In this document: positions 628 through 63,835 of the stretch, in pieces
Layout: each line of letters begins with the position of its first letter
Numbering within the stretch: the first letter of the stretch is position 1
From: Reclinomonas americana ATCC 50394
Taxonomy: Eukaryota
Direction of reading: 5' to 3'
Assembly: GCA_048213135.1 (NCBI GenBank)
Contig: PS015195.1
Span: 42,267-106,266 of the forward strand
DNA length: 64,000 nt
Position numbers and translations under genes: made by a program
The notes under the pieces: generated by a model
Databases searched by the model: none
Seen by the model: only the letters and a program-made list of their open reading frames with translations
Told to the model about the DNA's origin: nothing

Positions 628-3600
628 ATGCTGCTGAGAGACCGGCAACGCCTCGTGCTTGTGGCACTGGTGGTGCTGGTGTTGACAGGACTGATGTTAT
701 GGTGGATGCGCGCAGCTCCTGTGCGCCCACTGCGACCAACAACAACAACAACGACCACACCAACAAGCACACGACCAGCAACGCCTCCCACGCGCACACC
801 CACAGAGAGTGTTACTGATAAGGAGGAGGAGGAGGAGGAGGAGGAGGAGGACAGAGGGAGGAGGAGAGCAAGTGACGATGAGAGTGATGATGATGATGAG
901 GATGCGGCAAAGCAGCGCGAACACATTAGTGATCTGGTTATGGAGGTGCTGGAGAACAGCAAGCGCAGTGTNNNNNNNNNNNNNNNNNNNNNNNNNNNNN
1001 NNNNNNNNNNNNNNNNNNNNNNNNNNNNNNNNNNNNNNNNNNNNNNNNNNNNNNNNNNNNNNNNNNNNNNNNNNNNNNNNNNNNNNNNNNNNNNNNNNNN
1101 NNNNNNNNNNNNNNNNNNNNNNNNNNNNNNNNNNNNNNNNNNNNNNNNNNNNNNNNNNNNNNNNNNNNNNNNNNNNNNNNNNNNNNNNNNNNNNNNNNNN
1201 NNNNNNNNNNNNNNNNNNNNNNNNNNNNNNNNNNNNNNNNNNNNNNNNNNNNNNNNNNNNNNNNNNNNNNNNNNNNNNNNNNNNNNNNNNNNNNNNNNNN
1301 NNNNNNNNNNNNNNNNNNNNNNNNNNNNNNNNNNNNNNNNNNNNNNNNNNNNNNNNNNNNNNNNNNNNNNNNNNNNNNNNNNNNNNNNNNNNNNNNNNNN
1401 NNNNNNNNNNNNNNNNNNNNNNNNNNNNNNNCCAGATGGAGTTGGAGCAGAAGGTGAGCGCTGAGAGAGGGAAGAGAGAGGGGGGAGGGAAGGAGCGAGT
1501 AACTGATGCAGTCTTTTCATTCGCACGTGCCACGCGTTTGGATGATTCTCCCGCGCACTCTCTCTCCTTCACTCTCTCCTCCCCTTCTCTTCACTCTCTC
1601 CACCCACTCTNNNNNNNNNNNNNNNNNNNNNNNNNNNNNNNNNNNNNNNNNNNNNNNNNNNNNNNNNNNNNNNNNNNNNNNNNNNNNNNNNNNNNNNNNN
1701 NNNNNNNNNNNNNNNNNNNNNNNNNNNNNNNNNNNNNNNNNNNNNNNNNNNNNNNNNNNNNNNNNNNNNNNNNNNNNNNNNNNNNNNNNNNNNNNNNNNN
1801 NNNNNNNNNNNNNNNNNNNNNNNNNNNNNNNNNNNNNNNNNNNNNNNNNNNNNNNNNNNNNNNNNNNNNNNNNNNNNNNNNNNNNNNNNNNNNNNNNNNN
1901 NNNNNNNNNNNNNNNNNNNNNNNNNNNNNNNNNNNNNNNNNNNNNNNNNNNNNNNNNNNNNNNNNNNNNNNNNNNNNNNNNNNNNNNNNNNNNNNNNNNN
2001 NNNNNNNNNNNNNNNNNNNNNNNNNNNNNNNNNNNNNNNNNNNNNNNNNNNNNNNNNNNNNNNNNNNNNNNNNNNNNNNNNNNNNNNNNNNNNNNNNNNN
2101 NNNNNNNNNNNNNNNNNNNNNNNNNNNNNNNNNNNNNNNNNNNNNNNNNNNNNNNNNNNNNNNNNNNNNNNNNNNNNNNNNNNNNNNNNNNNNNNNNNNN
2201 NNNNNNNNNNNNNNNNNNNNNNNNNNNNNNNNNNNNNNNNNNNNNNNNNNNNNNNNNNNNNNNNNNNNCACTCTCTCTCATTCTCTCTCCTCTCTCTCTC
2301 TCGCTGACTCTCATCTGTTCTCTCTCTCTCTCTCTCTCTCAGTCTCTCTCTCTCTCTATCTCCTCTCTCCTCTCTCTTTCCCTCTCCCTCTCTCATTATC
2401 TCTTCTCCTCTCTCTCCCACTCTGTCTCTCTTCCCTCTTCTCCTCTCCACGCATTCTTCACTCTCTCATTCATTCTCCTCTCCTCTCTCCTGTCTCCCTC
2501 TCTCTCATTCTCTCCTCTCTCTCTCTCCCTCTTCTCCTCTCCTCTCTCTCTCCTCCCCCTCTTCTCCTCTCCACTCTTCTCCCCCACTCTCTCTCCCCTT
2601 CACCCTCACTCCCTTCGCCTTTGTGCTGCAGACCACCGAGTTCATGCGCAATCTGGAGGAGTTCCTGAGCAAGGAAGAGCTCTCGTTGCCGGTGATCACC
2701 GCACCACCCAAGCAGGCTGAGCCGCAACCGGAAGAGGCATCGTCGGAGGAGGGCAATGGAGAGGGCGCACAAGAGGAGGCGGAGGAGAAAAAGGAGGAGG
2801 GGGAGGAGGAGGAAACGACGAAGAAGGCCGGAGAGGAAGAGGAGAAGGAGAAGCCGAGTGGTACGACAGAGACGCCGACGCGGACGCCGCCTGTCGAGGG
2901 CGTGCCGAATCTCGGCACAGTGCTGCCGACACGAGTTGCGTTGTGTGTGCTCCTCTCTCTCTCTGGCCACTCTGTGCGTTGCTCACCCCATGCATGTCCT
3001 GTGCAGGCCATTGTGGTGCGCGACCCGCAGCGTCAGCGTGAGGTCTTTGATCGCAGGGATTTGGTGGTGGCCAGTCTCATCACGCACTCGGGCAGTTGTG
3101 TTGCTGTCGAGTNNNNNNNNNNNNNNNNNNNNNNNNNNNNNNNNNNNNNNNNNNNNNNNNNNNNNNNNNNNNNNNNNNNNNNNNNNNNNNNNNNNNNNNN
3201 NNNNNNNNNNNNNNNNNNNNNNNNNNNNNNNNNNNNNNNNNNNNNNNNNNNNNNNNNNNNNNNNNNNNNNNNNNNNNNNNNNNNNNNNNNNNNNNNNNNN
3301 NNNNNNNNNNNNNNNNNNNNNNNNNNNNNNNNNNNNNNNNNNNNNNNNNNNNNNNNNNNNNNNNNNNNNNNNNNNNNNNNNNNNNNNNNNNNNNNNNNNN
3401 NNNNNNNNNNNNNNNNNNNNNNNNNNNNNNNNNNNNNNNNNNNNNNNNNNNNNNNNNNNNNNNNNNNNNNNNNNNNNNNNNNNNNNNNNNNNNNNNNNNN
3501 NNNNNNNNNNNNNNNNNNNNNNNNNNNNNNNNNNNNNNNNNNNNNNNNNNNNNNNNNNNNNNNNNNNNNNNNNNNNNNNNNNNNNNNNNNNNNNNNNNNN

Positions 3601-62136: not shown

Positions 62137-63835
62137 ATGGGTGTCGAAGCAAGCAGCAGTTGCGCCTCTCCCACTTCCTTCCTCCGCTCGTACCTCCTCC
62201 CTGCTCACCCTGTCGCCCTCCTCAGTGACCTTTTCCGGCGGTGTGCGTGCCACTCCGCCTCTGACTGGCGACAACACACTCGGCCCCTCCACTGGAGGCC
62301 TCGTCAGTGGCATGGGCATGCTGGAGCCACAACCAAGCACTCTGCCGTGCCGCATGGGCGAGCTCGGGTGCGAGTGGTCGGGCATGAATGAGACGGAGGT
62401 GCGTTTGACAAAGGCACGCGTGCTCCCCCGTTCCAGTATGTGCGATTGACACCTCCCTCTCTCTCTCCCCCGCTGCGACTATAGCTTGGTGCCCATGAGA
62501 AGACGTGCGCGTATGTTCGTGCGGAGCGCCATTTTGAGCGACTTGTACGACAGGTGTGTTTGTCGCGATCGGACCTCCGTTTCTCCTCCTCCTCGTTTCC
62601 CCTCTCATTTCGTGCTATGCAGTTGTACCAGTGTGAGACCACGATCGAGGAACTGCGCGGAGCACTGGCCTCACAAACGCGAGAGGTAGGGCAAAGCAAG
62701 GGCCATGAGTGTGTGTGTTTTGTTTTTAGTGCGTGTATGTGTGTGCGGACTCACCTCATGCACAGCCAAGCTCATCAGTCCAGCCCGCTCACATTGTGCT
62801 CACAGCCGCGGATGCCTAGAGTTATCTCTCGCTGTGTGTGTATTATGCCACGGGGATTGCATCTTTTTTCGTCGCCCATCACCAACGTGGTTCTCATTGA
62901 GTGCTGTGCCCCCCCTTTCTCTCTCTCCCCCCTCCTCTCGTTTCCCTCTGTGCCATGTGCGTGTGCCGCTCTGTTGCACGACGCATGCAGCTTCACGTTC
63001 TGCGACGATTGGCCAAGGAGCAAGATCGCCGTTCGGATCAACTCGAGCAGCAGCTGGGTGACTTGCAGCAGACGGTGTGCGAGTTGACGTCGGCTGCCGC
63101 GGCGACGAATGCTGCGCCCGGCGCCACCACCACCACCGCCGCCGAGCCACACTGCTGCAGTGGCGGCTCGTGCCACGCACACGTGCACGACCACGAGCAC
63201 GTGCAACCACTCGTCGCCTCTGCATCGCCGGCAATCGCCAGTCGCGTTGAGTACCAGCTGCCGCTGGCGCCACCACCTGTGCAGCCGGCGTACGTGTCGC
63301 CACCAGTGGCACGGGCCGCTCCCCGTCGCTCGCGCGTGACGGTGGACACGGAGAGCACCACCGACATTATGGCGGCCTTCAACGGCGACTCGTCACCCAT
63401 TTCCGCATCATCGGCACCGGCCTCAGGCTCCGGCTCGCCGACCAGCATTTTGGTTCTCGGCTCCCCACTGCCGTCGCCGTTCGGCTCCCCCAGCTCGTCC
63501 CCCGGCTCCTCCCCAACTTCGGCAGCACAGGCCGCCCGGACACCCTTCGTGTGCCGCAAGTGTCACGAGACCATTGACGGTCGCACACCACCCGGTCCGT
63601 GCCGCTTCCACCCCGGAGCACAGCTGAAGAATGTTGCGCGTCGATTGCGATTTGGATGAAGGTCTCTCCATATATGTGCGCTCACTCCTTCTCTTTTGCA
63701 CGGATGCAGTACGGACCACCGTACTGGCAGTGCTGCGGACAGGGTGTGGACTCGCCGGGCTGCCGCGCCATGGAGCAGCATGCGCCGCCACGGCAACCCT
63801 CGAACCGACCGCGCACGGTGCGCATCGGTCAGTGA
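62137..63835 (+). CDS. putative N-myristoylated protein with TRAF-type Zn finger, coiled coil and C-terminal CHORD/Btk-like Zn finger
   Basis: MGVEASS|MTFSGG; PCRMGELGCEWSG..|LGAHEKTC; LEQQLGDLQQTVCEL; CRKC..CRFHPG..|..WQCC..PGC..H. Confidence 0.7.

Follow-up and report, generated by a model that had tools for sequence, protein, structure and literature searches.

Genes with short introns are frequent in the 64,000-nucleotide stretch of Reclinomonas americana ATCC 50394 DNA analyzed here (contig PS015195.1, positions 42,267 to 106,266 of the forward strand; hereafter, the window), among them genes for a temptin-like protein, a ferric-reductase/NOX-like protein, a GH47 alpha-mannosidase, a cation/H+ exchanger and a CDK-like kinase. 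This study concerns the 5′ splice sites (donors) of these introns. An earlier note on the sequence had listed 21 donors reading GTTGCG(T/C) or a relative of it and had interpreted them as an abundant second class, the usual donor shifted by one base and used after exons that end in a base other than G. We reassessed this proposal within this one 64-kb window of a draft assembly, on both strands, drawing on the window DNA and on protein homology. The window has a G+C content of about 50–60% in most 4-kb windows, is rich in microsatellites and is interrupted by 18 N gaps of 20–758 bases each. Throughout, donors with GTT and a G at intron position +6 are termed shifted, donors with G at +5 are termed canonical and a slash marks the exon end.

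Junctions were examined by homology and by gene modelling. Homologs of the GH47 mannosidase, ferric-reductase/NOX-like, cation/H+ exchanger and CDK-like kinase proteins were fetched using single exons as queries, the nearest homologs found for window proteins being 39–54% identical. Local profiles built from them were scored on all in-frame donor/acceptor pairs within ±24 nucleotides (nt), with any dinucleotide allowed; for GH47, all in-phase donor positions within ±60 nt were scanned. These tests use no splice signals, and a junction was regarded as homology-resolved (n = 19) when no GT–AG alternative scored higher. For gene modelling, we used our own exon-chaining gene finder with a coding model seeded on Pfam-supported frames. 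A donor-blind version gave the donor sequence no score, while a two-class version gave canonical and shifted patterns an equal bonus and incorporated corrections from the homology scans; the exon-end base entered no score in any model. Introns of ≤170 nt with a coding score of ≥8 for each flanking exon were considered confident (63 of 100 modelled). Several other procedures were discarded. Noise defeated both a broad signature test and the counting of k-mers upstream of CTCAC...CAG, a scan centred on introns selected over-long ones, iterating the matrices for donor and acceptor left only 33 introns and a self-trained codon model drifted to CT-rich repeats.

All 21 listed sites carry the sequence attributed to them, and the exon ends in a base other than G in 20 of them (A in 13, T in 4, C in 3 and G in 1), as the earlier note had reported. 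As donors they are not of equal standing. Eight are fixed by homology, nine are indicated by splice signals plus coding potential, three (+22685, +23162 and −14897) lie in unconserved or loop regions where profile scores do not discriminate, and 20983 is without support. The introns of the eight homology-confirmed donors, with the micro-exon that separates two of them, are given below; the donor is the first coordinate on the + strand and the last on the − strand.

20713–20776, + strand: intron of 64 nt in the temptin-like gene, donor a/GTTGCGG; splits Temptin_C and is found by the donor-blind model.
23797–23862, + strand: intron of 66 nt in the ferric-reductase/NOX-like gene, donor c/GTTGCGT; best of 774 pairs and the sole GT–AG pair.
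27270–27340, + strand: intron of 71 nt in the GH47 alpha-mannosidase gene, donor t/GTTGCGT; best in-phase cut, found by the donor-blind model.
27341–27374, + strand: micro-exon of 34 nt in the GH47 gene, with shifted-type introns on both sides; completes the conserved GH47 motif region.
27375–27443, + strand: intron of 69 nt in the GH47 gene, donor a/GTTTCGT; best in-phase cut, T after the acceptor.
59815–59869, + strand: intron of 55 nt in the CDK-like kinase gene, donor a/GTTGAGT; best of 691 pairs, next GT–AG pair at −27.1 bits.
60187–60248, + strand: intron of 62 nt in the CDK-like gene, donor a/GTTTCGT; best of 729 pairs, next GT–AG pair at −21.1 bits.
13877–13950, − strand: intron of 74 nt in the cation/H+ exchanger gene, donor g/GTTGCGT, the single case after G; best of 780 pairs, next GT–AG pair at −24.3 bits.
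14682–14761, − strand: intron of 80 nt in the cation/H+ exchanger gene, donor c/GTTGCGC; best of 798 pairs, next GT–AG pair at −12.1 bits.

At 20713, the upstream exon matches positions 46–75 of Pfam Temptin_C through to its final residue (E = 6e-10), and the match of the downstream exon, to positions 76–97, begins with that exon's first residue and is weak alone (E = 0.057). The small Temptin_C gene divided by this intron spans 20233–20917 (+). In the GH47 gene, the best alternative cut at 27270 scores 1.9 bits lower and the only GT alternative 5.2 bits lower; at 27375, the only GT alternative is GTAGTT, 3 nt upstream and 6.3 bits lower. The assertion that the 27375 cut cannot be moved by one base proved correct, as the shift would make a TAG. 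Moreover, in four of the confirmed introns (27270, 27375, 14761 and 13950) the base after the acceptor is not G and the cut therefore cannot slide. Judged by protein homology, GTTGCG(T/C), GTTGAGT and GTTTCGT are thus real starts of GT–AG introns. The CDK-like gene is cut by an N gap at 60638. A metagenome scan with the GH47 exon produced 155 pattern matches, of which none was confirmed.

Two ordinary-frame junctions resolved in the same way serve as comparators.

14425–14546, − strand: intron with donor g/GTTTGTA, canonical register with T at +3; best of 520 in-frame pairs.
59937–60089, + strand: intron in the CDK-like gene with canonical donor g/GTGAGTC; best of 799 in-frame pairs.

For the remaining listed sites, and for one further shifted donor at 4664, the evidence is more heterogeneous.

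2935–3006, + strand: shifted intron of 72 nt, donor a/GTTGCGT; CTCAC 25 nt before CAG, in-frame join of two open frames, two-class model.
4664–4739, + strand: shifted intron of 76 nt, donor a/GTTGCGT, absent from the earlier list; both gene models, flanking exons without a Pfam family.
20983–20989, + strand: claimed donor a/GTTGCGC, unsupported; no branch-plus-YAG signature within ≤200 nt, 16–21 open codons upstream, used by no model.
22685–22747, + strand: shifted intron of 63 nt in the ferric-reductase/NOX-like gene, donor a/GTTGCGT; CTCAC plus CAG, two-class model.
23162–23226, + strand: shifted intron of 65 nt in the ferric-reductase/NOX-like gene, donor t/GTTGCGT; signals, two-class model.
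52577–52811, + strand: claimed shifted intron of 235 nt (long), donor a/GTTGCGC, weak; two-class model only, no family found.
55519–55590, + strand: claimed shifted intron of 72 nt, donor a/GTTGCGT, weak; CAG at the right distance, no CTNAY, upstream exon cut by an N gap.
62159–62225, + strand: claimed shifted intron of 67 nt, donor a/GTTGCGC; CTCAC plus CAG, models prefer another donor with the same acceptor.
63633–63709, + strand: claimed shifted intron of 77 nt, donor t/GTTGCGC; CTCAC plus CAG, models prefer another donor with the same acceptor.
14789–14897, − strand: claimed related intron of 109 nt, donor a/GTTGCAT; sole GT–AG pair within ±24 nt.
18407–18485, − strand: claimed shifted intron of 79 nt, donor t/GTTGCGT; signature at 79 nt, two-class model with the same donor and a different acceptor.
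30403–30468, − strand: claimed shifted intron of 66 nt, donor a/GTTGCGT; signature at 66 nt, donor-blind model with the same donor and another acceptor.
48545–48609, − strand: shifted intron of 65 nt in an EGF-repeat gene, donor c/GTTGCGT; the join restores the EGF-like cysteine pattern (by eye), two-class model.
57094–57245, − strand: claimed shifted intron of 152 nt, donor a/GTTGAGT; two-class model only.

The donor-blind model recovers seven of the 21 listed sites and the two-class model 14. Site 22685 lies outside the conserved region, and an in-phase GTCCGA 6 nt upstream scores equally in the hidden Markov model (HMM) profile. At 23162, two of four GT–AG pairs score 0.4–0.5 bits above the shifted pair in the HMM, and at 14897, in an unconserved N-terminus, 142 of 712 pairs score higher, by ≤2.3 bits. 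The exon downstream of the 48609 intron carries EGF families, while a Pfam search with the exons flanking 2935, 4664, 30468 and 63633 gave no usable match.

The motif itself is enriched independently of any gene model. GTTGCG occurs 60 times on both strands, compared with 44.3 ± 6.4 in 100 shuffles, none of which reached 60, an excess of about 16. A first CTNAY...YAG signature ending 55–85 nt downstream follows 16 of the 60 GTTGCG sites, against 549 of 6,815 (8.1%) of all GT sites (p = 1.5e-5), which places GTTGCG first of the 193 GT-hexamers with n ≥ 10; GTTTCG also ranks near the top (6 of 20 with the signature). The window has 21 GTTGCGT heptamers, 13 of which coincide with donors that were either claimed or modelled. 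Because the branch motif CTCAC reads GTGAG on the opposite strand, many GTGAGT are antisense images of branch sites (for example, 59857 and 60233 on the − strand), and this blurs counts of the canonical donor motif.

Two further occurrences of the motif, g/GTTGCGC at 44346 and g/GTTGCGT at 46015 (+), fall within coding exons that score well, in a pair of duplicated genes, each 22 nt upstream of a canonical donor; they are used by no model, and these two post-G copies are not donor-like. The duplicated genes are tandem, near-identical three-exon copies at 44015–44905 and 45684–46553 (+) that encode cysteine-rich proteins with a poly-proline stretch, and their intron positions and donors are the same (GTGAGTT, then GTGTGT). 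Runs of the (GT)n, (GA)n, (GAGT)n and GGAA types are very numerous across the whole window, and several genes are cut by N gaps.

Among the 63 confident introns, 38 have canonical donors, 18 shifted donors and seven other donors. Shifted donors accordingly make up 22–29% of the total (22 of 100 modelled and 18 of 63 confident introns), and we put their overall share at about a fifth to a quarter. The donor-blind model, which is noisy (115 of its 154 donors fall in neither class), still placed eight shifted heptamers among its donors where 2.3 were expected (p = 0.0025), and in its hexamer counts GTTGCG, GTGCGT and GTGTGT tie as the commonest (seven each), followed by GTGAGT (six).

Exon ends separate the two classes. 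Canonical donors mostly follow G, in line with the earlier note (26 of 38), whereas one of the 18 shifted donors does (Fisher p = 8e-6 over the confident introns); among homology-resolved junctions the figures are 9 of 11 canonical and 1 of 8 shifted (p = 0.005). Put differently, −1 is not G in 33 confident donors, of which 17 (about half) are shifted, and is G in 30, of which one is. Codons that the coding model disfavours (CGA, CAT, GGA and GAA) end the exon at four of six phase-0 shifted donors, which hints that the exon-end base of shifted donors is selected for splicing. Shifted donors are therefore frequent here and tied to non-G exon ends, and to this extent the claim that they are routine holds; the part of the claim that had ordinary U1 reading them finds little support, as detailed below.

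These figures bear on the explanation that the class is an artefact or a product of common descent, that is, chance motifs, wrong junctions, assembly errors doubling a T or one mobile intron family. The draft state of the assembly with its 18 N gaps, the unsupported site 20983 and the several sites indicated by signals only speak for it. Set against these are the eight junctions fixed by homology without splice signals, the top rank of GTTGCG among the 193 hexamers and the consideration that a randomly doubled T would not track non-G exon ends. When 17 shifted introns were aligned, only the donor, branch and acceptor columns were conserved, with a mean column identity of 36%; a mobile, introner-like family was consequently rejected for lack of similarity beyond the signals. 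We regard an artefact or common descent as scarcely credible.

The canonical consensus in the window is G/GTG(A/T/C)G(T/C), with G at +3 in 33 of 38 donors, A, T or C but never G at +4 (14, 15 and 9) and T or C at +6 (25 and 10). The shifted consensus is (A/C/T)/GTTGCGT, more rarely GTTGAGT or GTTTCGT, with G at +4 in 16 of 18, C at +5 in 16 of 18 (A in 2) and T at +7 in 15 of 18. An extra T after GT in the shifted donors thus leaves the usual +5 G at +6, and their block from +4 to +7 (GCGT) equals the common canonical block from +3 to +6. The earlier description of these sites as the common donor plus a T captures their appearance of having been moved by one base but not their uniformity, the motif being much tighter than the canonical one (C at +5 in 16 of 18 versus C at canonical +4 in 9 of 38, p = 6e-6).

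In the other features compared, the two classes of intron are alike. Both are of the U2 type, running from GT to AG with YAG preceded at about 20 nt by a CTCAY branch motif, and have lengths of about 55–160 nt (median 67 nt for shifted and 75 nt for canonical introns); the listed sites have (T/C)GCAG intron ends and mostly total 55–80 nt. A CTNAY motif within ≤45 nt of the acceptor is present in 16 of 18 shifted introns (CTCAC in 11; median distance 20 nt) and in 32 of 38 canonical ones, and the branch motif (CTCAC first), its distance and the acceptor do not differ between the classes. Minor-class (U12-type) introns have their own donor and branch consensus and a much tighter donor than the major class. 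An assignment of the shifted introns to this class was rejected, their branch motif and spacing being those of the canonical introns.

The composition of the exon side is displaced together with the intron side. Position −1 of shifted donors (A8 C5 G1 T4) resembles canonical −2 (A16 C7 G3 T12; p = 0.8) and not canonical −1 (p = 4e-5). This match argues for a recognition frame moved by one base, and a simple bulge does not predict it. It also bears on the reading without any shift, in which the sites are a local form of the intron-side-strong donor class (NN//GURAG as opposed to AG//GUNNN) read in the normal frame, their likeness to GTGCGT plus T being coincidental. Such a reading can draw on the trade-off between a strong intron side and G at −1, which is general in eukaryotes according to the accessible part of PMC11732430. 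It can also draw on T at +3 in the ordinary frame, found here in two homology-supported donors, g/GTTTGTA (−14546) and a/GTTCGTC (+24105); T at +3 alone is therefore no marker of the shifted class. Against it, shifted sites are without the +5 G of all other strong donors in the window and have G at +6 instead, they make at most two pairs with the U6 ACAGA box in the normal frame and their exon-side composition is displaced. We hold a normal-frame origin to be very improbable.

An explanation has to start from the junctions, their frequency, the link to the exon-end base and the displaced exon-side composition, all of which are observed. We consider it moderately probable, on the strength of sequence patterns, that the donor-defining machinery uses a frame displaced by one base at the shifted sites. 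G+1 would then stand in for the exon-end G, U+3 for U+2, and G+6 and U+7 for G+5 and U+6, while cleavage would still fall before the only GU. At the handover to U6 and the catalytic core the extra U would have to be accommodated, probably as a bulge; pairing of G+6 and U+7 with the ACA of U6, if it occurs, would demand a bulge at that stage anyway.

A number of results weigh against this reading, foremost those on base pairing with U1. Duplex energies were nearest-neighbour estimates for an assumed U1 5′ end, the ACUUAC of PMC4856993, with bulges and loops allowed and U1 proteins ignored. Best duplexes averaged −1.2 kcal/mol across the 18 shifted sites, compared with −6.6 kcal/mol across the 38 canonical donors and −2.9 ± 2.2 kcal/mol across 400 GT sites taken at random. 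Pairing of G+1 with C9 of U1 is confined to two of the 18 shifted sites, both GTTGAGT. The poor pairing of GUUGCGU arises because U+2 is mismatched with C8 and C+5 is unpaired, and this near-invariant C has no partner in either standard U1 or the U6 ACAGA box. Among 16 combinations of bases at U1 positions 5 and 6, no variant lifted the shifted sites clearly above random; ACGUAC and ACGCAC place nine of the 18 in the shifted frame, at an energy equal to random (z = 0.1–0.2). Further reservations concern the data. The intron catalogue comes from our own gene models of a single 64-kb window, with junctions placed from DNA and protein homology, and, by rewarding both patterns, the two-class model in part predetermines the share of shifted donors and their G at +6. 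Canonical −2 is only moderately A-rich, and its match with shifted −1 involves small counts. A test of the −1 base free of gene models was not significant (3 of 23 versus 14 of 44, p = 0.14); its power is low because GTG-N-GY is very common outside donors, partly as GTGAG antisense to the branch motif.

The suggestion in the earlier note that U1 reads these sites as it does human GUUAAGU sites thus finds little support for an ordinary U1, since they pair with the assumed end worse than random GT sites do. Comparing pairing energies between registers likewise gave no favour to ordinary U1, shifted pairing being confined to the two GTTGAGT sites. This poor pairing points to a changed U1 5′ end, or to protein or U5/U6 contacts, as carrying much of the recognition, and which RNA or protein reads the sites is a part of the explanation that we infer.

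The same energies lend some weight to a dedicated reader, a second U1-like small nuclear RNA (snRNA) or other small RNA with a 5′ end complementary to A/GUUGCGU, which would set the sites apart as a class in the way of U11/U12. The tightness of the motif relative to the canonical one, pairing of GUUGCGU with standard U1 below that of random GT sites and the failure of changes at U1 positions 5 or 6 to rescue the sites would all fit such a reader, and a complementary strand would also account for A at −1. Precedents are the co-evolved U1 ends in Entamoeba and Mastigamoeba and the U1 variants of Physarum in the part of 10.1101/2022.06.08.495308 that was accessible. On the other side, no Rfam family, those of snRNAs included, reached its gathering score in the 64-kb window, and at E ≤ 1 there were only nine weak microRNA-like matches. 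Branch motif, length and acceptor are common to both classes, and at most the donor reader could therefore differ. In addition, single U1 candidates only are given for the searched lineages with C at +4 in the accessible part of the same source, which would bear on R. americana if it is one of them. Overall, a dedicated reader seems rather unlikely. A weak MIR408-like Rfam match (1446–1606, both strands, 32.9 bits versus a gathering score of 64, E = 3e-4) occupies a short island flanked by N gaps on both sides and probably reflects a palindrome of low complexity.

A bulged register, in which G+1 and U+2 keep their places in the normal U1/U6 frame while the surplus U, at +2 or +3, is looped out, has points in its favour. 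The GU sits at the catalytic site whatever the early frame, pairing of G+6 and U+7 with the ACA of U6 would force one bulge, and one-base bulges at +2 or +3 have been validated in human sites (accessible part of PMC4856993). Such a register would, however, keep the exon-end base opposite C9 of U1, for which G at −1 is expected; G was seen in one of 18, with a composition like canonical −2. The duplex search that allowed bulges still returned only about −1 kcal/mol. A bulge is also compatible with a shifted frame at the U1 stage, and as an explanation in its own right we judge it clearly unlikely.

The moved frame therefore remains the reading we prefer. It is conceivable, if doubtful, that two donor systems operate in the same genes, the ordinary G/GTG-N-GT and, for most non-G exon ends, one served by a dedicated RNA or protein, which would constitute a third type beside U1 and U11. 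The see-saw with the exon-end G is already known; a routine, nearly invariant donor that is offset by one base and alternates with ordinary donors in single genes seems to be the new part. If it extends genome-wide, the class would offer a natural system for studying how cleavage is positioned where the GU conflicts with the early recognition frame and would let one ask whether such sites need U1 pairing at all. Gene finders with a single donor matrix would then misplace about a fifth of exon ends here.

The closest known counterpart is the human +1 shifted U1 register, described by Roca and Krainer (2009) as cited in the accessible part of Tan et al. (2016; PMC4856993). As there, an extra base after GU is followed by the usual +2 block and G+1 stands at the place of the exon-end G; in the window, the exon-end composition is as the shift predicts. 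The consensus GT-TGCGT fits the canonical G-GTGCGT moved by one, which is the sequence pattern of a shifted register. Abundance and energetics differ. Validated noncanonical registers make up 1.5% of 201,541 human sites in the figures available from PMC4856993, compared with the 22–29% of modelled donors here, and a human shifted example given in that source reaches about −6.5 kcal/mol, against the mean of −1.2 kcal/mol for GUUGCGU sites with the same U1 end. Unlike human shifted sites, the motif in the window is nearly invariant. The bulge and asymmetric-loop registers treated in the same text also place a surplus nucleotide near +2 or +3 and otherwise keep the order of the consensus, but they keep an exon-end G useful and are rare in humans, whereas only one of 18 shifted donors here has G at −1.

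A broader parallel is the division of donors into two major classes, AG//GUNNN and NN//GURAG, across diverse species (Parker, Fica and Simpson 2025, PMC11732430, in its accessible part). As in this split, which is also treated in the available text of PMC11842720, donors without an exon-end G have a stronger intron side, and the anticorrelation between the two is present in the window. The known classes share one frame with G at +5, whereas shifted donors have G at +6 after an extra U, a +5 C without an ACAGA partner and not the normal-frame GURAG form. With U12-type introns, the shifted introns have in common that they are a minority class with a tighter donor; unlike those, they have a different donor motif and share the branch motif, spacing and acceptor of the majority. 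Our literature search found no abundant GTTGCGT or one-base-offset donor class, with subscription journals and supplements mostly outside its reach, and a genome paper may contain such a logo.

Lineage-specific donors provide the remaining comparisons. In the accessible part of Roy and Bowser (2022; 10.1101/2022.06.08.495308), Entamoeba GUUUGU with U1 ACAAAC and Mastigamoeba GUGCGC with ACGUAC are described as co-evolved, Thecamonas and Mamiellales as combining C at +4 with standard U1, and Physarum as having modified U1 variants alongside standard ones. By that account, odd donors can arise through a changed U1 5′ end, a proven route. The canonical donors of the window (GTGCGT, GTGAGT and GTGTGT) resemble those of the lineages with a pyrimidine at +4, while all the cases described there have one consensus per genome, with no second shifted class mentioned in the portion of the source available. 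Two coexisting donor motifs, one of them GTGCGT-like, occur in Ostreococcus lucimarinus, which according to the accessible text of Irimia and Roy (2008; PMC2483917) uses GTGCGTG outside chromosome 2 and GTRNGT on chromosome 2. The Ostreococcus sets use a single frame and occupy different chromosomes, whereas in the R. americana window the two classes alternate within genes, as in the GH47 and CDK-like genes.

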